Below are positions 1,816-43,890 of a DNA stretch of 64,000 bases, in pieces. Source of the DNA: Candidatus Woesearchaeota archaeon (GTDB taxonomy: Archaea > Nanobdellota > Nanobdellia > SCGC-AAA011-G17 > JACPNG01); NCBI GenBank assembly GCA_016185615.1, contig JACPNE010000002.1, positions 5,253 through 69,252 on the forward strand, written 5' to 3'. The notes below the pieces were generated by a model. It searched no databases, had not been told where the DNA came from, and saw only the letters and a list, made by a program, of their open reading frames with translations. Positions within the stretch are counted from its first letter, which is position 1. Every line of letters starts with the position of its first letter. The position numbers and the translations under genes were made by a program.

Positions 1816-3063
1816 ATGAAAATAAAAATATTACTTTTGGTTTTTTTATTTAATGTATCTATAGCATTTGCACAGATAGATATAAATATATTGAGGGAAA
1901 ATTATTCGAATTTTGAAACAATACAAGCAGAGATTACATTAGAAAATCCTTTGAAAAATCTGTCAGCAAATGACATAAAAATAGATAACATTAAGGTTGC
2001 GCCATTAATCTTTTCTTTAGAAGAAAATAAGTATTTTATATACTTTAATCTTCCAAATTTACAAAATGGTACACACAACATTTCAATAAGCTCAAGATTT
2101 CTAATAAATAATGCGTTAACAGACATTGTATCTGAGAAGGAATTTAATATAATTGAATCAAATTCTTCCTTATCAATAAAACCCGGAATATTATTCATAA
2201 ACAAAAATAGCTTGCAGGGACATTATATAATTATTTTAAAGAATAATAATCAGCCATTAGATGTTTCTGTAGATTTAGACTCAGATTTTCTTTATCCAGT
2301 AAGAACAAATATTTTTTTAGAAAATAATGAAGAAAAAAATCTTTTTATTATCCCAAAAGAAGGATCAATTCAGGATTCTAAATTAATATTGAATTATGAG
2401 AATACCTATGAAATCCCAATAATAATCTTAGATTATAAAATGGAAAATGATTCAAATACAGATTTAGAAGAATCAGAAAAAAAAGTTTCATTTATAGTTT
2501 CACAGTCATCATTAACAAGGGCATTAAATACAGACCAATCAATTTCAGGACCAATAGAATTCAAAAATAACCTTAATAGGGATATAAATGTAAAATTTTA
2601 TTTGACTGGAGATTTGGATAAAATTATTAAGATTAATATTACGCAGATGAAATTAAAACCAAATGAAGTAAACTCACAATATCTATTCATTAACGAGGAT
2701 AAAAATGCAAAAGGAGTTTATCTGGGAGAGTTAGTTTTAGAAGCGGAAGGGTATAAAGAAGAGTTTACAATAGAGCTTGATTTTATTGAAAAAGTTAATA
2801 ACATAGAAACAACAGATATAGAAGAAGTAGAAGAAGATTCATTGGGAAATATACAAAATGAAGATTTTTCCTCAGAATTGGGAATAGGCATTATCAACTT
2901 ATCTTCTCCTCAAACACAACCAGAAAAAAATAAGAGTTCATATTTATTTTCCATACTACTAATTATTGTAATATTAGTTTTATTATTAGTCATATTTTAT
3001 CTGTCAAAAGTAAAGAGACCACCAAAGACGTTTAAGGATTATACATCATCTATAAAAAGATAA
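1816..3063 (+). CDS. Hypothetical surface protein (signal peptide, C-terminal TM anchor)
   Basis: N-terminal 'MKIKILLLVFLFNVSIAFAQ' looks like a signal peptide. C-terminal 'YLFSILLIIVILVLLLVIFYL' is followed by basic residues. Starts 7 nt after the upstream stop. Confidence 0.5.
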   Translation: MKIKILLLVFLFNVSIAFAQIDINILRENYSNFETIQAEITLENPLKNLSANDIKIDNIKVAPLIFSLEENKYFIYFNLPNLQNGTHNISISSRFLINNALTDIVSEKEFNIIESNSSLSIKPGILFINKNSLQGHYIIILKNNNQPLDVSVDLDSDFLYPVRTNIFLENNEEKNLFIIPKEGSIQDSKLILNYENTYEIPIIILDYKMENDSNTDLEESEKKVSFIVSQSSLTRALNTDQSISGPIEFKNNLNRDINVKFYLTGDLDKIIKINITQMKLKPNEVNSQYLFINEDKNAKGVYLGELVLEAEGYKEEFTIELDFIEKVNNIETTDIEEVEEDSLGNIQNEDFSSELGIGIINLSSPQTQPEKNKSSYLFSILLIIVILVLLLVIFYLSKVKRPPKTFKDYTSSIKR

Positions 3064-3896: not shown

Positions 3897-5630
3897 ATGA
3901 GATATAAATTATTAATCATAGTATTATACTTAGTGTCTTTGCCTATAATCATCCATGCTCAAGCCGAGTTTGCAGCTTTACCTTTAGCAGAAAAGATTAC
4001 ATGGCTTGAAAAACCTGCCAACTTCAATCATCCGGAATATACCAATAGGCTTTTGCAATATGCTCCACTTAAAGATTATAAAGAACTGTGGTTTGAATAT
4101 TTAAATAAAATTGATATTAACAGTGAGAATGAAAATATTTTCTTTAGATATTTAAATGAAATAGATGATACATCTTCATCAAATCAGAACATTGCAGACA
4201 AATTTTTGACACATAAAAAAACTATAAAAGGGGATAGTATTAATATAGCAAATAGATTTCTCAGCTCTAAAATTAATGGTAATTTTGACATTAGTTCAAG
4301 TAATTCTGAATATTTGGGGGATTGGAAGCTAAAAAATGGAAACATTGAATTAAATCTTAATGACAATCAGTTTTCTGGTGCAAGAATAAAATCATTGTCA
4401 GAAGGAGGTTTCGAGATATCGCCAAAGCAGGCAATTAAAATAGGAGAGAATGTTTACAAAGTTCCTTTATCTTCACAATTTAAACTTAATAATGATTTTT
4501 CTGTTAATGTTCCGAAAGACTCGGAAATATTGCCTAATCAGGGTGGAAAAATAATAGTAAGGGATCTTGATGAATCTATTATAAAAATAAATAATGAGAT
4601 ACAAGTAAGAAATGGCTATATTGACTATATCAATGATAATAAAGTATTGAGTGGCCGGGATTTTAATATTTATTTTAAAAATAGCAGATATTCCGGAAAT
4701 TATATCGCTTTTGAAGGGGATGCTTTCACATTGCAGGGAGAAGCAAGCATCTCAATAAGGAATAGAGATGGACTATATAACACATTTATAGGAAATGATC
4801 AAAAATATGGGTGGGAAAGTCAAGATAGTATAACAATAAAACCATTTGGTCCATCAGAAAAAGATAATACACCATATCTATTTTCGGAGCACGATATAAC
4901 AATAAATGATAAAAAACAAACTATAAAATACAAGTATATTAGTGATGGAAAAGACTTTTATGTCAGACCGGGAACTTCAATAGGTAAACTTGGTGAAATA
5001 GCTGATAGTTTTAAGCTGAATGATGTAAAGCTCCCAGGAATTATAGTAGATACTAAAAATCAATTAAGATTAGATAGTGATGGCCTTTTTATCAAACAAG
5101 TCAACCATTTCTTGGGAAATGAACCAAAGTATGTTCATCATAAGTTTATTTTGGATGATATTACAAAACTTAAAACAATTCAAATGAGGGGAACACAGCT
5201 TACAAATGGTGGGGTAATGACCCTAAACACAGACATAACTTTTACTGAAAACGGGTTTATTCCCTCTGATTTAGATCTTGAGTTACAAAGGGGAAGAAAT
5301 ATAATGACTGTGCCATCTAGCATTCAAGATAAAATAATTAGCGATGCTATAAGAAATAATGCACTGAAGATAGAAATGAAATTTGATCTGGAAAATCTAT
5401 TTGCTAGATTTGGCGATGGAAGATTAAGAAGCAGTTTGCTTGGACTTATAAATGAAATGAGAATAAGTGAAACTGATTTATCTGTTTTTAAAAAAGCACT
5501 TGAGGAATTTGGATTTGGAAAGACATTAAGAATAGAGGGCATGGAAATATTTATAGATAATAAGAAAGTCGGAGTATTAAGTGATACTGAGTCTTTTAAA
5601 AGATTAGTTATTGACTCATTAAACAGATAG
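3897..5630 (+). CDS. Hypothetical secreted protein
   Basis: Signal peptide 'MRYKLLIIVLYLVSLPIIIHAQA'. Starts 2 nt after the previous stop. No family recognised. Confidence 0.5.
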   Translation: MRYKLLIIVLYLVSLPIIIHAQAEFAALPLAEKITWLEKPANFNHPEYTNRLLQYAPLKDYKELWFEYLNKIDINSENENIFFRYLNEIDDTSSSNQNIADKFLTHKKTIKGDSINIANRFLSSKINGNFDISSSNSEYLGDWKLKNGNIELNLNDNQFSGARIKSLSEGGFEISPKQAIKIGENVYKVPLSSQFKLNNDFSVNVPKDSEILPNQGGKIIVRDLDESIIKINNEIQVRNGYIDYINDNKVLSGRDFNIYFKNSRYSGNYIAFEGDAFTLQGEASISIRNRDGLYNTFIGNDQKYGWESQDSITIKPFGPSEKDNTPYLFSEHDITINDKKQTIKYKYISDGKDFYVRPGTSIGKLGEIADSFKLNDVKLPGIIVDTKNQLRLDSDGLFIKQVNHFLGNEPKYVHHKFILDDITKLKTIQMRGTQLTNGGVMTLNTDITFTENGFIPSDLDLELQRGRNIMTVPSSIQDKIISDAIRNNALKIEMKFDLENLFARFGDGRLRSSLLGLINEMRISETDLSVFKKALEEFGFGKTLRIEGMEIFIDNKKVGVLSDTESFKRLVIDSLNR

Positions 5631-6298: not shown

Positions 6299-6724
6299 TT
6301 ATGCCTTATTAGTGGTAAACTTATTTAATTCCCTTCTTAGAACTATATTATTTGCATTTATATTTTTCATTTTCATATCCATATCGTGCAACTTAGCCAT
6401 CAAATCATTGAACATATCCATTATATCTTGAGCCTCTACAGTAGACTTATCGGGCTTTATGATATCTATTGAGCTTGGCATGTAATCAAAGCACATTTTT
6501 GTTATTTCTTTGAAATCTTTAAATTCAATTTCTAAATCAACAAAACTGCTGAACATTCCCTTATACTTCTCATTGCTAAGTTTTTCAGCATCATAAAGAA
6601 CATGACTCTTTACATCAAAAGTATCTTTTATATTATTGATATATTTCCTAATGGTGACTTCAACGTGTTCTTTTGGACTTCCCACTATCTCTACTACTAC
6701 TTTAGCTAATATCTTTCCGTTCAT
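6299..6724 (-). CDS. Hypothetical cytoplasmic protein
   Basis: 141-aa ORF overlapping the 3' end of the upstream LTD gene by 23 nt, so likely co-transcribed. No family recognised. Confidence 0.45.
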   Translation of the reverse strand: MNGKILAKVVVEIVGSPKEHVEVTIRKYINNIKDTFDVKSHVLYDAEKLSNEKYKGMFSSFVDLEIEFKDFKEITKMCFDYMPSSIDIIKPDKSTVEAQDIMDMFNDLMAKLHDMDMKMKNINANNIVLRRELNKFTTNKA

Positions 6725-8207
6725 TTATCAACACCGAAATTAATATGATCAATAGTGCTATAAATAAAAACACACCCAATCTTGAAGCCTCTTTTGAGCT
6801 GTTTTCATATACTATTCTATTGTTTATATTCGCTACTTTTTTGGTTGTTTCTTGAGTTATATTATTCTCTTTAGTATCTTCTTTTTTAATACTTTCCTTT
6901 TTGGAAATATCATCTTTTATAATGCCTTTAGTATAACATTCTTTGCTAATTCCTGATATTTCTATATCTTCCTTATCTTCAGTATTTAAACCCTCTACAA
7001 TTATATTATAAGTTCCGTCTTTATACTTTTCATCACAATTAAGTCCTAATTGTATTGGGAATGTTATCTCATTATTGCTGAACTTTTCATAGACATTTGC
7101 CTTTGAGATCTTTGTTATTCTTTCATCACCCGAAATATAAGATTCTATTACTTCTTTTTCTGTATCTCCCTTATAAACAGAAATCTTTACTCTTATACTT
7201 GATCCCCACTCTGCTTTTTTATTGCTTCCTAGATCATATATCCTGTCTATTTCTATTTTTGAATCAGTAACTTGTTCTATAGTTGAATTATCTTTGTTTT
7301 CTTCATTTGGAGTTGACTCTGTCATTTGCCACATACTGTTTATTTTACTCCAACTTAATCCCTCTTTGCTGTCGCTATAGCTGATCTCATCTATTAAATT
7401 ATCATTAAGATCATATAACATTATCTTTTCAAAACCATTATTATTCAGAAATCCAGAAATCCCATTTGCATAAACAACCAAATAATTCTTTGATTTTATT
7501 CTTGTACTTTCTTCAATATGGACATTATCGATTAATAACTCTTTTTCACTGTCATCTTTTAATTTAAAGCCAAGTAAATCTAAATCTTCATTTCCAGTAT
7601 TATAAAGCTCAACCCACTCGCCATCAGGCATACTTGAATCATCATCTCCAAGAGGATTTGCCATAAACTCATTAATTTTGATTTTTGAATAATCATTAGA
7701 ATTCGTTTGATTATTCTCATTTGATCTTCCTGGGGTTGGTTCTGATTCAACAAATTCTCCATTAATTAATGCAAATGAATTTCCTTCTAAAGTTACATTA
7801 TTGTCATAATATAATACATCAATTAAATTCATATTGTTATCATACAATGTAATGCTTTCATTATTGCTTAAACCATCACCAATGGAATCATCTCCGGTAT
7901 ACAACCATAAAACATTATCATCTATCTCAAAATCATTATACACCCTTGTATCATCATCCACAATTATGGCATAGCCATGGCCTTGAAGTATAATATTATT
8001 ATAACCTTCCAAACTATCATTCTTATTATTGTCCTTTATAGTCCATCCAGTCATATTTATGGAAGTCTCATTATTATTGTACAGTTCAATCCATTCACAA
8101 TGTTTATCGAAAGAACACATTGGATTATACATCACTTCATTTATCACAACATCCGCTAAGGCCAATTGAGTGAACATTAGTAAAATTATAAACATTAGCT
8201 TTAGCAT
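6702..8207 (-). CDS. Surface protein with two lamin-tail domains (LTD), signal peptide and C-terminal TM anchor
   Basis: First LTD signature is 'VVINEVMYNP...EWIELYNNN..TGWTIKD'. Second is 'IKINEFMANP...GEWVELYNTG..LLGFKLKDD'. C-terminal hydrophobic 'LGVFLFIALLIILISVLI'. Confidence 0.7.
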   Translation of the reverse strand: MLKLMFIILLMFTQLALADVVINEVMYNPMCSFDKHCEWIELYNNNETSINMTGWTIKDNNKNDSLEGYNNIILQGHGYAIIVDDDTRVYNDFEIDDNVLWLYTGDDSIGDGLSNNESITLYDNNMNLIDVLYYDNNVTLEGNSFALINGEFVESEPTPGRSNENNQTNSNDYSKIKINEFMANPLGDDDSSMPDGEWVELYNTGNEDLDLLGFKLKDDSEKELLIDNVHIEESTRIKSKNYLVVYANGISGFLNNNGFEKIMLYDLNDNLIDEISYSDSKEGLSWSKINSMWQMTESTPNEENKDNSTIEQVTDSKIEIDRIYDLGSNKKAEWGSSIRVKISVYKGDTEKEVIESYISGDERITKISKANVYEKFSNNEITFPIQLGLNCDEKYKDGTYNIIVEGLNTEDKEDIEISGISKECYTKGIIKDDISKKESIKKEDTKENNITQETTKKVANINNRIVYENSSKEASRLGVFLFIALLIILISVLINERKDIS

Positions 8208-23052: not shown

Positions 23053-23946
23053 TTGCCTATAACAATGGGCAATGTAGAAGGAGCTACGTTAGATATAGAA
23101 TTTATCTTGAATAGTAATAAAGCACATCAAACATTATCTTATAATTTTTCAAAGCCAATAATCGATAATTCATTAGAATATACAATTGCTAGTGATATTG
23201 ATAGTGTCAACGTATTAGCTAATGGAAAAGAAGCTGATTTTGAAATAAGCCAAAATGAGGAAGTAAATACAATAAAAATAAATTCTTCAGAACCAATTAA
23301 CGATTTACAAATGTCTTTTAATGTAAATGATGTTATATTTAAGAATGGTAATACAAATCATTTTTTTACTGAATTATCTTTAAATAAAACAATTGTTTCT
23401 GACATTTCAGTAAAGGCAGTAATTCCCGCTGGCTATGGTTTATATGATAATTCATTTAAGCCGGAATCTGGAGCAATAACTAGTGATGGACAAAATGTTG
23501 TTGTTGAATGGGACGACGTAGATACAAGTAAACCATTACTTTTTTCTGTTAAATACAGAAAAGTAACTTTTCCAAGTTGGATTTTATGGACTTTAATAGT
23601 TTCATCTTTGACTATCTTAATAATATTGTTATATTTTCAATATCAACAAAAAACAGAGAAAGCAATGTTATACGGTTTTAGGGAAGATGAAAAGAAAGCC
23701 CTTGTATTCATTAAAACACATAAAAATATCTTACAAAAAGAGCTTCAAAATGAGTTTAAATTTTCACGTGCTAAATCTACAAGAATTGTAAAAAGATTAG
23801 AAGAAAAAGGATTGATAAAAAAAGAAGAATTTGGTAGAACAAATAAAATTATGTGGAGGGGGGAATTTTCTGAAAAAAAAGAGGATATAAAAGATCTTAA
23901 TGAAAAATTAAATCAAACATTCAATTTCTGGGAAAAATTAAAATAA
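23053..23946 (+). CDS. Membrane-tethered transcription regulator candidate: extracytoplasmic N-domain, one TM, cytoplasmic winged helix-turn-helix (COG2512-like architecture)
   Basis: TM 'WILWTLIVSSLTILIILLYF' followed by 'EDEKKALVFIKTHKNILQKELQNEFKFSRAKSTRIVKRLEEKGLIKKEEFGRTNKI' (MarR/wHTH-like). The start codon is uncertain (TTG 23053 or ATG 23065). Confidence 0.6.
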   Translation: MPITMGNVEGATLDIEFILNSNKAHQTLSYNFSKPIIDNSLEYTIASDIDSVNVLANGKEADFEISQNEEVNTIKINSSEPINDLQMSFNVNDVIFKNGNTNHFFTELSLNKTIVSDISVKAVIPAGYGLYDNSFKPESGAITSDGQNVVVEWDDVDTSKPLLFSVKYRKVTFPSWILWTLIVSSLTILIILLYFQYQQKTEKAMLYGFREDEKKALVFIKTHKNILQKELQNEFKFSRAKSTRIVKRLEEKGLIKKEEFGRTNKIMWRGEFSEKKEDIKDLNEKLNQTFNFWEKLK

Positions 23947-23982: not shown

Positions 23983-24046
23983 ATTGTTTCAAATTGTTTC
24001 AAAGCTGTTTCACATTGTTTCAAGAACAAATTAAGTATCTGAAACA
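23983..24046 (+). promoter_or_regulatory. Phased TGTTTCA x4 array, TATA-like AACAAATTAAGTA, then inverted TGAAACA; candidate operator/promoter of the 24137 gene
   Basis: TGTTTCA at 23985, 23995, 24006 and 24016 (10/11/10-bp spacing). TGAAACA at 24040-24046. The 3' 42 bp are repeated exactly at 26800-26841. Confidence 0.5.
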
Positions 24047-24136
24047 CTTTCTATTTTTGTCATAATGTTAGTGCGCACAATGTATCCTAGGCACATTGGT
24101 TGCACTAGATAGATAAGTATATTTGGGGGTGAAAGA

Positions 24137-26182
24137 ATGAAAAATGAAAAATATAAGCAAATAGCTGGTGCGCTGGTTGTTGTCTTTTTATTGTTAGCAG
24201 CACCTTTTGCTTTTGCTAATGGTTCTGGTGTAGATACATCTAGCATAAATGTAGATGTAAACACAGAATCGCAGTCAGAAGCAAGTGCTGAAGCAACTGG
24301 AGATGATTCTAGTGCGGAAGCAGACGCTAGTTCTGAATCGGGGGTTGAAGTAGATGCCAGTATTTCCGATGGTGATGAATCTAGTGTTGATGTAAAAGCA
24401 GATGCTAAATCTGAAGCAAATGCACAAGCAACTTCTGAAGTAGATGAAGATGATGATTGTGACACTGGATGCGATGATGAAGATACATCAAGTGAAGCTG
24501 AAGCAGAAGCAAGTGCTGAAGCAGAAGCAGAAGTAAGTGTTGAAACATCTTCCGGAACAAGTGATAACTGTGGTAACAAATGTAAACCTAAATGCGACAG
24601 TGATTGTGATGAAAACACATCTAATATAGAAGTAGAAGCAACAGCTGAAGCTGAGTCTGAAGCACAAGCAAGTACAACCTCATCAGGAGGATCTGGTGGT
24701 GGAAGCTGTAATGATTGTGACGAATGTGACACTGGATGCGATGATGAAGATACATCAAGTGCAGAAGCAGAAGCTAGCGCAGAAGCTGAAGCAGAGGTTG
24801 AAGTAGATAATAATAATGACTGTGGTAGTGAATGTGACGAAGATTCAACAATAAAAGCAGAAGCTAGCGCAGATGCAGAAGCTGAAGCAGAAGCAACTGG
24901 AGAAGGTAGTTCAGCATTTTCTAGTGCTGTAGCAAAAGCTGAAGCAACTGTTAATGTAGTCATTTCTGCATGTAATGAGATGATAGATGCAATAGTCAAA
25001 GCCGTTGCAGAAGCCCAAGCAAATGCACAAGCAACTTCTGAAGTAGATGAAGATGATGATTGTGACACTGGATGCGATGATGAAGATACATCAAGTGAAG
25101 CTGAAGCAGAAGCAAGTGCTGAAGCAAGTGCTGGATCATCATCTAATACAAATGACCACTGCGGAAGTAGATGCAAACCTAAGCCTAAATGTGGTACTGA
25201 ATGTAATAATACAGAAGACACATTAGGCGAGGCAAATGCTGAAGCAGAAGCTGAATCAGATGCTGAAGCAGAAGCAAAAGCTGAGTCTGAAGATGAGGGT
25301 GGTGCAGAAGCATTAGCTAATGCCGACGCAGAAGCTGAAGCTGAGGTTGAAGCTGAATTAGACAAAGCTTGTAATGAAGCTAAGGCTTACGCTAAATCTG
25401 TAGCTGAAGGTAGATCTGAGGCTATAACAAAAGTGTATGAACTTATAACTTCATTTGTAGAAGCTATGACTAAAGTATTCACTTCTGCTGAAGTAGATGG
25501 AGATGAATTAGGCATTGCTGTAGCAGAGGCTATGGCTAAAGCTTATGCAGAAGTTAATGTATTTGCTGACGCAGAAGCTGAAGCTTACGCTAAGGCTTTG
25601 AGTGAGGCTAGAGCAGAAGCTGAAGCAAAATGTGGGGAAGCTTCAGAAGCTAAGGCAAAAACTAACGCTAAAGCTAGTGCAGAAGCAAGAGCAGAAGCAG
25701 AAGCAAGAGCAGAAGCAAGTGCAGAAGCTCATGCCGAAGCTGAAGCTCATGCAGAAGCATGCATTGGATCAGATGAGTTATCTGATGCCGAAGCTCATGC
25801 AAAAGCTAGTGCTGAAGCTTCAGCTAGAGCATACGCACATGCAGTAGCATCTGCATTTGCTAGTGCAAGAGCAGAAGCATACGCTAAAGCAGTAGCTAGC
25901 AGTTCTGCTGGAGATGCAAGTGCTAAAGCAACAGCTGAGGCAAATGCTAAAGCCGCTGCAGAAGCTGCCGACAAAGCAGAAGCTGAAGCAGAAGCAAGTG
26001 CAGAAGCTGCCGCTAAAGCAAAAGCGCATGTAGAAGGACTTGGAAAAGCAGAAGCAGATGCTGAAGGTATTGCTCATGCTGAATCAGATGGTGAGGATGA
26101 AGCAAGCGTTGATTCAAACACATTAGCTGAAGACAATGGTGAAGCAGAAGCAGAAACTTTAGCAGAGGCTAGCTCAGAATAA
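24137..26182 (+). CDS. Secreted hyperacidic Ala/Glu-rich protein with Cys-cluster modules and (Ala-X)n tracts; function unknown
   Basis: GGGGGTGA SD 6 nt before the ATG. Signal peptide 'ALVVVFLLLAAPFAFANG'. 681-aa uninterrupted ORF with three 'CDTGCDDEDTSS' modules and C-x3-C clusters. Hairpin plus T-tract after the stop. Confidence 0.75.
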   Translation: MKNEKYKQIAGALVVVFLLLAAPFAFANGSGVDTSSINVDVNTESQSEASAEATGDDSSAEADASSESGVEVDASISDGDESSVDVKADAKSEANAQATSEVDEDDDCDTGCDDEDTSSEAEAEASAEAEAEVSVETSSGTSDNCGNKCKPKCDSDCDENTSNIEVEATAEAESEAQASTTSSGGSGGGSCNDCDECDTGCDDEDTSSAEAEASAEAEAEVEVDNNNDCGSECDEDSTIKAEASADAEAEAEATGEGSSAFSSAVAKAEATVNVVISACNEMIDAIVKAVAEAQANAQATSEVDEDDDCDTGCDDEDTSSEAEAEASAEASAGSSSNTNDHCGSRCKPKPKCGTECNNTEDTLGEANAEAEAESDAEAEAKAESEDEGGAEALANADAEAEAEVEAELDKACNEAKAYAKSVAEGRSEAITKVYELITSFVEAMTKVFTSAEVDGDELGIAVAEAMAKAYAEVNVFADAEAEAYAKALSEARAEAEAKCGEASEAKAKTNAKASAEARAEAEARAEASAEAHAEAEAHAEACIGSDELSDAEAHAKASAEASARAYAHAVASAFASARAEAYAKAVASSSAGDASAKATAEANAKAAAEAADKAEAEAEASAEAAAKAKAHVEGLGKAEADAEGIAHAESDGEDEASVDSNTLAEDNGEAEAETLAEASSE

Positions 26183-26210
26183 GCCCTTCTGGGCTTTCTT
26201 TTTTTATTTT
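26182..26210 (+). terminator. Hairpin (AGCCC-TTCT-GGGCT) followed by T-rich tract
   Basis: 5-bp GC-rich stem at 26182-26195, then TTTCTTTTTTTATTTT. Oligo-T is the usual archaeal termination signal. Confidence 0.5.
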
Positions 26211-26265
26211 TAAAAATTGATTTAGTAATATATTCAGATGATAAAAAAGAATCTATCGAGGAAAA

Positions 26266-26571
26266 ATGGGATCAAAATTAAAGTTCATGCTAATTACAAT
26301 ATTTGGATTAACTTCAGTACTAGGAGTTATATTTACGAGCTTATTGATCCATGAAGGAATTCATATCTTACAATTAGGAGAAGCAGAAAGCATTTGTTAT
26401 GACATGCAACAGGATACATTTATGCATGTCTCTCATGATTTAAACAAAGTATACAATGGAAAAATAATTTATAATGAGAATATAGGTTACTGGGAAAAAC
26501 AGGCAGTTATAGGGGAAAATATCTTTTTAGTGTTATTAAGTATGTTGATGGGTTTTATTTTAAGAAGATAA
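26266..26571 (+). CDS. Small two-TM membrane protein with HExxH motif
   Basis: 'LLIHEGIHILQ' lies directly after the first TM helix, and a second TM is at the C-terminus. 101 aa. Confidence 0.45.
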   Translation: MGSKLKFMLITIFGLTSVLGVIFTSLLIHEGIHILQLGEAESICYDMQQDTFMHVSHDLNKVYNGKIIYNENIGYWEKQAVIGENIFLVLLSMLMGFILRR

Positions 26572-26799: not shown

Positions 26800-26841
26800 C
26801 TGTTTCACATTGTTTCAAGAACAAATTAAGTATCTGAAACA
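26800..26841 (+). promoter_or_regulatory. Second exact copy of the 42-bp TGTTTCA/TATA/TGAAACA element
   Basis: CTGTTTCACATTGTTTCAAGAACAAATTAAGTATCTGAAACA is identical to 24005-24046. In both copies ATAATG follows exactly 16 nt downstream. Confidence 0.55.
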
Positions 26842-26890: not shown

Positions 26891-28453
26891 ATGAAAATGA
26901 ACAAATTTAGTGCAATTATTTCAATATTAATTATTGTAGCTTTACCCTTAGTTATAGCACAAGGAGTAAATGATACAATAAATGATAGCTTGGGAAACAA
27001 CACAATGAATGAATTGAATAATATGAGCAACAATACACAGACATTAAATGATACAAGCACTTTAAACAATAATAGTAATGATACTTTCAACGATACCTTA
27101 GACGAAAGTGATGAAATATTGGAAGAAGATTTGATGAATGATTCGGAATTGGAAAATGATTCTGATAATGAAAGTGTACAAACTATGGATGAGGAAGTAA
27201 CTTCAACAAATTTAGGATTCCGTCAATTAGGAGAAGCATTAAATGATTTTATGTTTAATCTTCAATCAGCTTTTACATTTAGGGAAGAATCAAAATTGGA
27301 GTTACTTCAGGATAGGGTAGAAGAATTAAGAGTACGTCAACAAGAATGGGTTGAATTAAAACAACAAGCATTAATTAAATTTGATAGTGAGGAATCTGAC
27401 GCAGAGGAGAAACAGGATGTTTTAGATAGACTTAAAGAAAAACATAATGACATAATAAAAGATTATGTTGAAGTCATCTATGATTTAAATACAATTAAGG
27501 TTGAAGCAAGGGAAGATGGAGAAATAGATATAGAACAAAGAGCAAATAATTTCGCATTAGGAATAGAAGATTCTGATCTTTCACTTGGATTAAATACTAA
27601 TAGTGAAGCTGATTTAGCAGAAGAGATAGATAATGAATCAACAAGTGAAACTAGTGTTTCTGCTCAAGAGGCTATAGAAATTGCTGAAGATGAGTTTGAT
27701 TTTGATGCAACTAGCGTTACTGAAAGGGAGATGAATGGTCGATTAGTTTATCTCGTTGAAGGAACCAGAAGTGATACCTTTGGAACAACAGAATTAGATG
27801 GAATATATCAAGTATTAATTGATGCAAATACTGGAATTATCTCGTCTGTCAATATTAATATAGATATAGCATCAGGAGAGACTATAGAAAATGATTCATT
27901 AGGCATTGATAATCAAACAGCCAGTAATCAAACAACTAATCAAACAACTGGTAATCAGTCTATTGGTAATCAATCCAGAACAATGAATGAATCAAGAACA
28001 AATAGAACTGATAACAGAACTGAAGCTGGGGGGGAGGTAGAAGAAGACATTGAAATTAGAATTAATGGAAATATCAACTTTTCAGAAGAAGATGAAGAAA
28101 TGCTTAGGGATTTAGTTGAAGATTTTATAGAGTCAACTAATGAGGCAAAAATTGCAATAGAGGTTGATAAAGATGGGGGAGCAATTTCAATTGCAAGCAG
28201 TATAGCTGGAGATTTAACCTCTGAACAAGAGGGGAGATGGGATGAGATACAAGAAGAGATAAGATCATTAGTGAGTGAATTTTCAAGTGTCCAACTTAGG
28301 ATAGAAGCAGAGAGAGAATTTAGTGGAGAGTCTAACCAAACTAGTTCAAGCAGAGCAAGTGCTAGTGCCAGAAGTGAAAGTGAGAATGAAACTGCTAATG
28401 CTAGAGCAAGGAGTGAAGCTAGAAGTGAAAGCAGTTCAAGTAGTGACTATTAA
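26891..28453 (+). CDS. Secreted PepSY-domain protein with two N-glycosylation-sequon-rich linkers and a Ser/Ala/Arg/Glu low-complexity tail
   Basis: SD GGGGGTGA precedes the ATG at 26891, so the track GTG at 26882 is less likely. Signal peptide 'FSAIISILIIVALPLVIAQG'. PepSY-like 'SAQEAIEIAEDEF...MNGRLVYLVEG...YQVLIDANTGIISSV'. Confidence 0.65.
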   Translation: MKMNKFSAIISILIIVALPLVIAQGVNDTINDSLGNNTMNELNNMSNNTQTLNDTSTLNNNSNDTFNDTLDESDEILEEDLMNDSELENDSDNESVQTMDEEVTSTNLGFRQLGEALNDFMFNLQSAFTFREESKLELLQDRVEELRVRQQEWVELKQQALIKFDSEESDAEEKQDVLDRLKEKHNDIIKDYVEVIYDLNTIKVEAREDGEIDIEQRANNFALGIEDSDLSLGLNTNSEADLAEEIDNESTSETSVSAQEAIEIAEDEFDFDATSVTEREMNGRLVYLVEGTRSDTFGTTELDGIYQVLIDANTGIISSVNINIDIASGETIENDSLGIDNQTASNQTTNQTTGNQSIGNQSRTMNESRTNRTDNRTEAGGEVEEDIEIRINGNINFSEEDEEMLRDLVEDFIESTNEAKIAIEVDKDGGAISIASSIAGDLTSEQEGRWDEIQEEIRSLVSEFSSVQLRIEAEREFSGESNQTSSSRASASARSESENETANARARSEARSESSSSSDY

Positions 28454-28507
28454 ACTTTAACTCAATTAATTTATCTTTTCTTTTTTTATTTATCTTTGGA
28501 GGATAAA

Positions 28508-29236
28508 ATGAAGAAGAGGTTTTTAAAATGGAAACAAGAAATGAAACTATCTATTAAAAAAGAATTAAATAATGAGAAGTATATTCATAATATCGCACTT
28601 GGAGCAAGTGTTGGAACATTTATCTCTACAATTCCCACACCAGGAATTAATATTCTACTTGCATTATTAATATCATCCATACTTAAAATATTCGGAAAAT
28701 CAATGAGTTTATGGGCTGTTTTTGCATCTTTTGCTTTTTGGAATCCAATAGTGCAATTTCCCATTTATATAGGAAGTATGACTATTGGTTATCTTTTATT
28801 TCAGAGACCATTTCCACAGGATTTACTATCATTTGAGATGATAAAAAACTTTTCTATTCAATATTTTATTGGAGCATTTATATTAGCTTTAATTATATCT
28901 CCACTTTCTTATTTTTTAGTAATAAGAATTTTAAAATTGTATAATAAAAGATCAGATACAACTAACTATGATAAAAGTTTTAATACATTTACTATTTCAA
29001 AAATTAAATTATTACTTTTTATTATTGTTATAACCTCTTTACCATTAGTTTCCGCTTTGAATATAGGCTCACAGTCATCCCACAAGACTTATTCAGATGA
29101 TTCAGATATATTAACAACTAATAATAACATTAATACAAAGTTATCTGATGTTAAGAATTTACTTAGTTACTTAAATTATTTTAATACTACAAAAGAAAAA
29201 ATATCATCAATATTAAATCAGGATAATAATGAGTAG
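28508..29236 (+). CDS. Polytopic membrane protein, DUF2062-like
   Basis: 'NIALGASVGTFISTIPTPGINILLALLIS' resembles the DUF2062 core. GGAGG lies 5 nt before the ATG at 28508, so the track TTG at 28496 is less likely. Confidence 0.5.
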   Translation: MKKRFLKWKQEMKLSIKKELNNEKYIHNIALGASVGTFISTIPTPGINILLALLISSILKIFGKSMSLWAVFASFAFWNPIVQFPIYIGSMTIGYLLFQRPFPQDLLSFEMIKNFSIQYFIGAFILALIISPLSYFLVIRILKLYNKRSDTTNYDKSFNTFTISKIKLLLFIIVITSLPLVSALNIGSQSSHKTYSDDSDILTTNNNINTKLSDVKNLLSYLNYFNTTKEKISSILNQDNNE

Positions 29237-38674: not shown

Positions 38675-38696
38675 AACTCTTGCACTTCTGCAATAT

Positions 38697-38780
38697 GCGG
38701 GAGTGTCAGAGCGGTCAAATGAGCTAGCCTAAGGAGCTAGTGGCTTAGTGCCTACGCAGGTTCGAATCCTGTCTCCCGCA
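38697..38780 (+). tRNA. tRNA-Leu (class II, long variable arm); anticodon reads AAG by hand folding
   Basis: Acceptor GCGGGAG/CTCCCGC. Anticodon stem CTAGC/GCTAG with loop C-T-A-A-G-G-A. Variable-arm stem GGC/GCC. T arm GCAGG-TTCGAAT-CCTGT. No encoded CCA. Confidence 0.85.
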
Positions 38781-38788
38781 ATAAGAAA

Positions 38789-42844: not shown

Positions 42845-42964
42845 GTGATGAACAGCATCCCAGATTTCCCGCTCAAAGAGTAGTACAGTCTGAAACGTTG
42901 ACCCGTTTTACTGCCGAGTTCGGAATGGGATCGGGTAGTTCCAGGTCACTATGACCGTCCATCA
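42845..42964 (-). rRNA. rrf: 5S rRNA (orphan, not linked to 16S/23S in this window)
   Basis: Reverse complement reads GATGGACGGTCATAGTGACCTGGAACTACCCGATCCCATTCCGAACTCGGCAGTAAAACGGG...CTGTTCATC. Helix I closes, with two G-U pairs. GC-rich patch in an AT-rich context. Confidence 0.85.
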
Positions 42965-43815: not shown

Positions 43816-43890
43816 GGGGCTGTGGTGTAGCTTGGTCTATCATCTCGGGTTTGGGACCCGAGGACCTCGGTTCGAATCCGGGCAGCCCCA
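43816..43890 (+). tRNA. tRNA-Pro (anticodon TGG)
   Basis: Acceptor GGGGCTG/CAGCCCC. Anticodon stem TCGGG/CCCGA with loop TTTGGGA. T loop TTCGAAT. Confidence 0.85.

Follow-up and report, generated by a model that had tools for sequence, protein, structure and literature searches.

Introduction

The tiny genomes of DPANN archaea encode unannotated secreted proteins in large numbers. Presumably these support the life of the cells on or close to their hosts, and orphan low-complexity secreted proteins are common among them. One such reading frame raises the question whether it is a gene at all and, if so, what kind of protein it might encode. It lies in a stretch of 64,000 nucleotides (nt) from Candidatus Woesearchaeota archaeon (contig JACPNE010000002.1, positions 5,253 to 69,252 of the forward strand), which is called the window in the following, and it specifies an Ala-rich, hyperacidic protein of 681 amino acids (aa), hereafter the target. 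According to the comparison of assemblies, the target is a genuine, selectively maintained protein-coding gene of a groundwater archaeon. It shows that one extreme low-complexity open reading frame (ORF) is not annotation noise, being under purifying selection and conserved between groundwater populations.

The target is a selectively maintained gene

The features on which the first part of the argument is based are as follows.
24137..26182, plus strand: target ORF from the ORF listing, 2046 nt, 681 aa, ATG start
24125..24132, plus strand: Shine-Dalgarno-like GGGGGTGA, 4 nt 5' of the ATG, direct reading
24137..24217, plus strand: Sec-type signal peptide, residues 1-27, predicted cleavage between AFA and NG, direct reading and hydropathy
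24392..24523, plus strand: internal direct repeat of 132 nt, copy 1
24995..25126, plus strand: internal direct repeat of 132 nt, copy 2
26181..26211, plus strand: short GC hairpin AAGCCC TTCT GGGCTT (26181-26196) followed by a T-run, termination signal

The encoded protein is dominated by Ala (25.3%), Glu (16.6%), Ser (11.5%) and Asp (8.8%). Its Ala content makes it an extreme outlier, as the other ORFs of the window contain, with few exceptions, 1-10% and mostly 2-6% Ala. The gene was retrieved from further data by a metagenome scan and by a look-up through the neighbouring 101-aa ORF, and it is present in five other assemblies, all from other samples (L002, L003, L013, L014 and L015); partial copies come from further groundwater samples. 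An initial sequence-only reading had taken the target for a real gene and had named frame-disrupting variation among strains as one observation that would speak against it. None was seen across the assemblies compared, in which the insertions and deletions of 3, 6 and 600 nt all keep the frame. Between the window and L002 we counted 45 substitutions with the Nei-Gojobori method, 28 of them synonymous and 17 non-synonymous, corresponding to a synonymous rate (dS) of 0.065, a non-synonymous rate (dN) of 0.011 and a dN/dS of 0.17, which is inside the range of ten surrounding genes (0.07-0.48). The ratio is about 0.25 in the N-terminal half (residues 28-369), while the most repetitive part, residues 405-681, has nine synonymous and no non-synonymous changes. 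All 22 Cys are kept in the full-length forms and the signal peptide is identical across all strains. In L003 and L013 exactly 600 nt are missing between the two 132-nt copies, resulting in a 480-aa form otherwise identical to the L002 protein, which could be either a genuine allele produced by recombination or an artefact of collapsed repeats in the assembly. Collectively, the purifying selection, the restriction to in-frame variation and the presence in five other assemblies are the reasons for regarding the target as a real gene.

The selection also appears to act on a particular pattern. Ala alternates with other residues over almost the whole mature protein, with 119 A-x-A triplets compared to 31.4 +/- 4.9 in shuffled sequences and only five A-A dipeptides compared to 41.8 +/- 4.8, and in almost all segments the power of the hydropathy signal at period 2.0 greatly exceeds the 99th percentile of shuffled sequences. 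The positions between the Ala residues are varied (E, K, S, H, R, Y, N, T, D and V), whereas the Ala positions are kept. Since diverse X residues, kept Ala and zero non-synonymous change occur together, the constraint appears to be on the Ala pattern and not merely a consequence of an origin from hexanucleotide repeats.

Such an origin is the core of one alternative, in which the target is a young, largely function-less ORF that arose from GCW-GAA hexanucleotide expansion and internal duplications and persists as harmless. Hexamers and tandem repeats of 12-42 nt do run throughout the gene, the two 132-nt copies (94% identical, in frame, 603 nt apart) point to internal duplication, the target is limited to one species-level lineage, its length variants are bounded by repeats, and assemblies break at it. 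These observations are opposed by the dN/dS, by the purely synonymous change in the most repetitive half, by the preserved Ala positions with avoidance of A-A (5 versus 42 expected), by the conservation of the Cys residues and the reading frame, and by a Shine-Dalgarno sequence, a signal peptide, an operator copy (see below) and a terminator that the gene has of its own. Because of the selection data we regard a function-less target as quite unlikely.

The repeats leave their mark on the assemblies. The Logan contigs with the upstream regulator gene (L004-L006, all three that were listed) stop about 88 nt past that gene, at the 5' end of the target. Among the contigs carrying the 101-aa ORF, 7 of 14 are shorter than 2 kb and several begin inside the 3' part of the target, and the L019 contig fuses target residue ~325 in frame to residue ~620. 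Evidently, the repeats of the target break or mis-join short-read assemblies.

The GC content of the target (40-45%) is raised over that of its surroundings (about 30%), which the sequence-only reading had ascribed to GCN and GAR codons. This explanation holds: GC amounts to 0.64 and 0.52 at codon positions 1 and 2 versus 0.38 and 0.29 in the background, whereas GC at position 3 is 0.14 versus 0.21 and the synonymous preferences match the genome. The rise is compositional, because the excess is confined to the first two codon positions, and the native third positions and codon choice make a recent horizontal transfer from a GC-rich donor unlikely. A minus-strand ORF of 444 aa (24031..25365) lacks a start context and lies antisense to the selected gene; it was rejected as a shadow of the GCN/GAR periodicity.

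Regarding expression signals, the Shine-Dalgarno sequence and the hairpin/oligo-T terminator that had been noticed before were both found again, and GGGGGTGA also precedes the PepSY gene further downstream (26891..28453). The fold of the terminator hairpin alone is not significant; in archaea the T-run is the relevant part of a termination signal. The supposed structured leader did not withstand shuffling (z = -1.55, with 14 of 200 shuffles folding equally well), and the claim of strong expression was left without support.

Searches for related proteins

The next question was whether the target belongs to any known family. For the full-length protein no Pfam family was found at E <= 0.1, neither default nor permissive thresholds yielded a match in Pfam or NCBIfam, and the separate Cys modules described below returned only noise at E <= 10. 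The best module match, C_tripleX (PF02363), scores 10.6 bits (E 0.72), where the cut-off is 22.9 bits, and was discarded as noise; it shares a C-x3-C-x3-C pattern with CGNKCKPKCDSDC, which is a coincidence of pattern only. Sequence searches of the PDB gave just Ala/Glu/Gln-rich low-complexity or noise matches, and the Foldseek search of the predicted structure against the PDB had nothing at E <= 0.001 and found generic helical hairpins only. A search of 5.8e9 proteins with the full-length target recovered only low-complexity proteins of the AEAKAK type, and a HMMER search of 1.84e9 representative proteins with residues 28-480 had zero matches at E <= 1e-3. The FtsY/SPOR-like matches are compositional, involve unrelated Pfam domains and were not accepted as homologous.

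The exact target and its 96-98% identical variants are missing from the protein collections searched, although its neighbours are present, and the null result is slightly weaker than it appears because these collections are incomplete for the lineage. A scan of the GTDB representative genomes with the neighbouring SppA gave one 34% match, on an unrelated contig, and no close genome for a comparison of synteny. Genes of the window are archaeal (Orc1/Cdc6, an Elp3-like radical SAM protein, Lhr and DUF460), and proteins next to the target are identical to the entries MBI2662975.1 and MBI2662977.1 of a Candidatus Woesearchaeota metagenome-assembled genome (MAG). The sequence-only reading had found no recognisable family and had asked for a match to a characterised one as counter-evidence; none of the Pfam, NCBIfam, PDB, Foldseek and representative-protein searches gave a real match. 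By these searches, the target is a lineage-specific orphan with no recognisable family.

Organization of the predicted protein

The protein can be divided into two halves, the first of which carries the Cys modules.
24218..25243, plus strand: hyperacidic N-terminal half, residues 28-369, net charge about -85, mostly predicted disordered
24413-24622, plus strand: six-Cys module 1, residues 93-162
24662-24856, plus strand: six-Cys module 2, residues 176-240
25016-25216, plus strand: six-Cys module 3, residues 294-360
25244..26182 including the stop, plus strand: C-terminal Ala-X dipeptide-periodic half, residues 370-681, 35% Ala, net charge about -49

The description as a secreted hyperacidic protein of 681 aa was confirmed by the signal peptide, the absence of a later hydrophobic segment and 173 acidic (D+E) versus 41 basic (K+R) residues; the mature chain has about 65 kDa, an isoelectric point of about 4.05 and a net charge of about -133. 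The N-terminus, MKNEKYKQIAGALVVVFLLLAAPFAFA followed by NG, shows a charged n-region, a hydrophobic core and an A-x-A cleavage site, the A-F-A/N site after the core fits signal peptidase I, and the maximal 19-residue hydropathy of 2.61 is reached at residue 9. Beyond residue 30 no 19-residue window exceeds 1.35, which leaves no candidate for a C-terminal anchor, and the protein ends with ...GEAEAETLAEASSE. Hence, the target reads as a secreted-type protein with a Sec signal peptide and without a membrane anchor. Anchored archaeal surface proteins offer no closer fit, as neither a PGF-CTERM or C-terminal transmembrane (TM) segment nor a Pfam or NCBIfam match to S-layer proteins was found, and the N-terminus MKNEKYK-QIAGAL... 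lacks the [KR][GAS] junction of the class III signal peptide of type IV pilins.

The 22 Cys make up 3.2% of the residues. The six clusters noticed before are all present in the N-terminal half, at residues 108-112, 145-157, 191-201, 229-233, 309-313 and 342-356, and four isolated Cys occur at residues 279, 412, 499 and 542. The spacing had been given as C-x2-3-C, which is right for C-x3-C (nine cases) and C-x2-C (two) and misses one C-x5-C. In the alignment the clusters combine into three modules of exactly six Cys each, split 2+4, 4+2 and 2+4, with a common order of an acidic run, C-D-T-G-C, DDEDTSS, an AEAEASAEA spacer, a Ser/Asn-rich turn and C-G-x-x-C(...). A reading of CNDCDECDTGC (191-201) as 4Fe-4S ferredoxin motif was rejected, the C-x2-C-x2-C-x3-C being followed by Asp instead of Pro in a region that is predicted disordered and has no Fer4 match in Pfam.

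The structure was predicted with AlphaFold2 from the single sequence and has low confidence, with a mean predicted local distance difference test (pLDDT) value of 48.7. The model shows residues 28-257 and 300-369 without structure (pLDDT <50), a helix at 3-28 in the signal region, and helices at 258-299, 370-450, 457-542, 551-588 and 594-646 with pLDDT 50-76. The predicted helix 258-299 (24908-25033) carries Cys279, and a hydropathy signal of period 3.6 is confined to residues 258-299 and 370-450. The Ala-X half may be helical, like the AEAKAK tracts of TolA, or may form sheets of the EAK16 type. Beyond what had been noticed before, the analysis brought out the three six-Cys modules, the period-2 Ala, the 132-nt duplication, the 480-aa variant, the four isolated Cys and the operator-bearing insertion to which we now turn.

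The target block as an insertion with a captured operator-like element

The surroundings of the target comprise the following elements.
23053..23946, plus strand: membrane-tethered regulator, 297 aa, with an N-terminal extracytoplasmic part, one TM segment and a C-terminal winged helix
23984-24002, plus strand: first part of the operator/promoter-like array (23984..24046), TTGTTTCAA twice
24005-24046, plus strand: 42-nt element CTGTTTCACATTGTTTCAAGAACAAATTAAGTATCTGAAACA, copy 1, 5' of the target
26266..26571, plus strand: co-inserted 101-aa ORF, two TM segments, HEGIH (HExxH) motif in a predicted outward loop
26595..26783, plus strand: co-inserted 62-aa ORF, among the gene calls of every strain contig
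26800-26841, plus strand: 42-nt element CTGTTTCACATTGTTTCAAGAACAAATTAAGTATCTGAAACA, copy 2, identical, 5' of the PepSY gene
26891..28453, plus strand: secreted acidic PepSY-domain protein, 520 aa, Pfam PepSY 1.2e-07

The regulator matches DUF7343 (1.5e-08) and MarR (8.5e-07) in Pfam and is 100% identical to MBI2662975.1, annotated as MarR family transcriptional regulator [Candidatus Woesearchaeota archaeon]. Aenigmarchaeota and further DPANN MAGs encode homologs that share 29-46% identity with it, and six of their loci were inspected (L007/L008, L009/L010, L011/L012, L022, L023 and L024). In all of them except L009/L010 the gene directly 3' of the regulator encodes a secreted protein of 258-288 aa, which is followed by a DUF5667 protein in four of these five loci; L009/L010 has, after a gap of about 435 nt, a DUF5667-like gene instead of the secreted protein. 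The downstream protein of L011, the sole locus compared directly, is 33% identical to the PepSY protein of the window (E 8e-39). The regulator and PepSY genes are direct neighbours in other DPANN archaea, whereas in the window they are parted by the target, the 101-aa ORF and the 62-aa ORF.

The identical 42-nt repeats bound the 2.8-kb block of the target and the two small ORFs. Each repeat contains inverted TGTTTCA/TGAAACA half-sites, between which the TATA-like AAATTAAG is placed (24028-24035 in copy 1). The pattern TGTTTCA-N10-30-TGAAAC has eight matches in the 64 kb, which fall on just these two sites versus 0.07 expected, and the array and the 42-nt element are kept in the strains. An operator-like element follows directly after the regulator stop in all five relatives with a PepSY homolog, among them Woesearchaeota and Aenigmarchaeota (L007 5810-5851, L011 6878-6918, L022 1022-1062, L023 4824-4864, L024 4851-4891). 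It combines two TGTTTCA units in direct orientation with the A/T-rich box AAATTARG and with (T)GAAAC as the inverted unit, in the form TGTTTCAC-N2-3-TGTTTCAA-N5-AAATTARG-N4-5-(T)GAAAC, and the corresponding order TGTTTCA(C)-N-TGTTTCAA-N5-AAATTARG-N4-5-(T)GAAAC is found upstream of the target. We infer that the 42-nt element is the operator of the regulator, flanking an archaeal TATA-like box. The target block is a lineage-specific insertion carrying a copy of this conserved element. As the target acquired an operator copy together with two extra TTGTTTCAA units, it has probably joined the regulon and is co-regulated with the PepSY envelope protein. Insertion and operator capture would illustrate the birth of a new envelope gene and its integration into a regulon that was already there. 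Moreover, the regulator, the PepSY homolog and DUF5667 represent a candidate autoregulated or sensor-controlled envelope regulon across DPANN lineages, which together with the operator has so far been undescribed.

The 101-aa ORF, annotated as hypothetical protein HYX15_00395, has only same-species matches (96-97%) and a dN/dS of 0.07. It is absent from the regulator locus in the relatives inspected and was not found near similar acidic proteins elsewhere, being limited to the target species. It may be a minimal membrane metallopeptidase. This neighbour figures in a further explanation, according to which the target is a polyprotein precursor with the acidic AEAEAS tracts as spacers or propeptides. 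Cleavage, possibly by the HEGIH protein, would set the six-Cys modules free as small Cys-rich peptides that act as signals, antimicrobials or chelators. Three repeated Cys modules parted by acidic spacers would suit a precursor, as would an adjacent co-inserted two-TM ORF with HExxH that is under purifying selection, and (Glu-Ala)n spacers are known from the multi-copy precursor of yeast alpha-factor. We consider the explanation very unlikely nevertheless, as the 101-aa ORF has no peptidase family match and HExxH is frequent by chance, conservation within the target is highest in the Ala-X half and not in the Cys modules, and neither recognisable cleavage sites in the target nor maturase genes nearby were seen.

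Two side observations concern the downstream neighbours. The PepSY protein of the window is about twice as long as its homologs (520 versus 258-288 aa), the extra part being acidic, Asn/Ser/Thr-rich low complexity that by eye looks rich in N-x-S/T sequons, and its C-terminal tail RASASARSESENETANARARSEARSES also alternates with period 2. Low-complexity expansion seems to be a trait of the secreted proteins of this lineage. The DUF2062 membrane ORF (28496-29236) contains in its C-terminal part ...SLPLVSALNIGSQSS..., which by eye resembles the N-terminal signal region of DUF5667 in the relatives (ALELGSQKF, ASHVGSQSF); its tail could derive, as a remnant or by fusion, from the DUF5667 gene usually found after the PepSY homolog.

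Possible functions of the target

What could such a protein do outside the cell? Among the candidate roles named in the sequence-only reading were cation or metal binding, which is plausible, mineral nucleation and a cell-cell interface, which would be speculative. By analogy we tentatively place it, as a possibility that falls somewhat short of probable, among extracellular polyanionic cation-binding sponges or matrices. Its carboxylate-rich tracts would bind hard cations (Ca2+, Mg2+, Fe2+/3+), while the six-Cys modules might chelate softer metals via thiolate and carboxylate or lock as small disulfide knots. The Ala-X half would self-associate as long helical hairpins or EAK16-like sheets and thereby keep the polyanion at the cell surface, possibly triggered once cations neutralise the Glu residues, and the membrane-tethered regulator would control the target together with the PepSY envelope protein.

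Several known proteins can be compared with the target. Skeletal-matrix proteins of biomineralising animals such as corals and molluscs are Asp-rich, secreted, extremely acidic and of low complexity; acidic residues alternate with small ones, and a conserved fold is lacking. The target resembles them in signal peptide, acidity, low complexity, the acidic/small alternation and the lack of a conserved fold; it differs in coming from another domain of life and in being Glu/Ala- instead of Asp-rich, and there is no sequence relationship. To our knowledge, no mineral is known for Woesearchaeota.

For the Ala-X half, TolA domain II and the FtsY- and SPOR-like AEAKAK linkers are the only sequence matches; their (Ala-Glu/Lys/Arg)n tracts have Ala at every second position as in the target. 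TolA-type AEAKAK tracts are generally regarded as helical, and the model likewise draws residues 370-646 as predicted helices. In contrast to TolA and FtsY, the target is secreted, strongly net-negative and equipped with Cys modules, and its residues 28-480 match nothing; neither the TM or C-terminal domain of TolA nor an SRP54-type GTPase was detected with Pfam. A second model is provided by EAK16 and RADA16, which derive from yeast zuotin. Their strict Ala/charged alternation is also seen in AEARAEAEARAEA, AEAKAESE and similar segments of the target. Peptides of this (Ala-charged)n type form nanofibre scaffolds of beta-sheets by self-assembly (PMC7889856, PMC8216384). The target differs from these peptides as a natural secreted protein of 650 residues in which Glu/Asp far exceed Lys/Arg, so that it would not be self-complementary without counter-cations, and the likeness is one of sequence.

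The third comparison is with metallothioneins and phytochelatin-like (Glu-Cys)n chelators, which the target resembles in its compact Cys clusters beside carboxylates, e.g. CNDCDECDTGCDDED. Metallothioneins are small, have about 20-30% Cys in C-x-C, C-C and C-x2-C motifs, and the classical ones are intracellular, whereas the target is secreted, has 3.2% Cys and mostly C-x3-C. No metallothionein family of Pfam matched the full protein (E <= 0.1) or the modules (E <= 10), and the label metallothionein-like, which the sequence-only reading had used, is reduced to a loose analogy. Overall, the target may work most like secreted acidic matrix proteins and Ala/charged linkers and is a member of neither. 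As a secreted hyperacidic low-complexity protein it is of a known broad kind; its module organization is unusual and so far unique.

Several points weigh against the cation-binding matrix. No homology backs any ligand, and the Cys content is far below that of metallothioneins, while the C-x3-C spacing and the even Cys number (22 in total, six per module) fit disulfides at least equally well. The structural part draws on a low-confidence, single-sequence model that does not tell helix from sheet in the Ala-X half. Without an anchor the target could simply be released, and control by the winged helix-turn-helix protein is deduced from nothing more than position and a conserved motif.

A different explanation is a disulfide-cross-linked fibrous surface or adhesion protein for which metal binding would not be the purpose. 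Here, the Ala-X half would form coiled-coil or silk-like fibres, the modules would serve as knots or inter-chain links and the acidic tracts as hydrated spacers, and the protein would build an envelope layer or a host-cell contact zone. It accounts for the even Cys counts and the secretion signal, for the strongest conservation being in the Ala-X half with zero non-synonymous changes, and for a model with long helices whose fold matches are merely generic helical hairpins. The locus holds other secreted envelope proteins and an operator common to the target and the PepSY gene, and DPANN archaea are commonly episymbionts. However, the target has no anchor, no known adhesion or S-layer domain and no homologs, disulfides are questionable in anoxic groundwater, and the net charge of -133 opposes self-assembly unless cations are bound, by which cation binding returns. 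On balance a fibrous protein of this type appears doubtful.

A bolder version of the cation-binding matrix would see in the target a new class of archaeal extracellular metal-handling polymer. In anoxic groundwater its six-Cys thiolate/carboxylate modules, carried on a polyanion, would take up Fe, Zn, Cu or contaminant metals. The (Ala-X)n domain would self-assemble and serve as a tether, the membrane-tethered sensor-regulator would act as a switch, and the recently born gene would give the host-dependent DPANN cell a metal reservoir or detoxification layer. In this full form the proposal is unlikely. If it is true that the Cys/carboxylate modules bind metals, the target would be a new type of extracellular chelator in a setting where aquifer metal cycling matters. 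In any case, with its selection signal, its regular six-Cys modules and its captured operator the target is a well-defined experimental subject.

Further features of the window

The window is rich in envelope and secreted genes. The ORF 115-1809, perhaps cut at its 5' end, has weak squalene-cyclase/prenyltransferase-like repeats and about four Cys-rich repeats CGGxCxxxC...C...NCPxDC (24 Cys), after which come a TM anchor and a cytoplasmic tail rich in Lys; the product has the appearance of the large surface proteins typical of DPANN archaea and is unrelated to the target. Secreted proteins are also encoded at 6702-8207, 1816-3063 and 3897-5630. One of these three has two lamin-tail domains, and two, with 415 and 577 aa, show a signal-peptide-like hydrophobic start and no Pfam family. 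Among the RNA genes, a tRNA-Leu(AAG) was located at 38696-38781, a tRNA-Pro(UGG) at 43816-43890 and a 5S rRNA gene at 42847-42962, which stands alone because the 64 kb contain neither a 16S nor a 23S rRNA gene. Finally, several ORFs at about 36-40 kb look by eye like ribosomal proteins.

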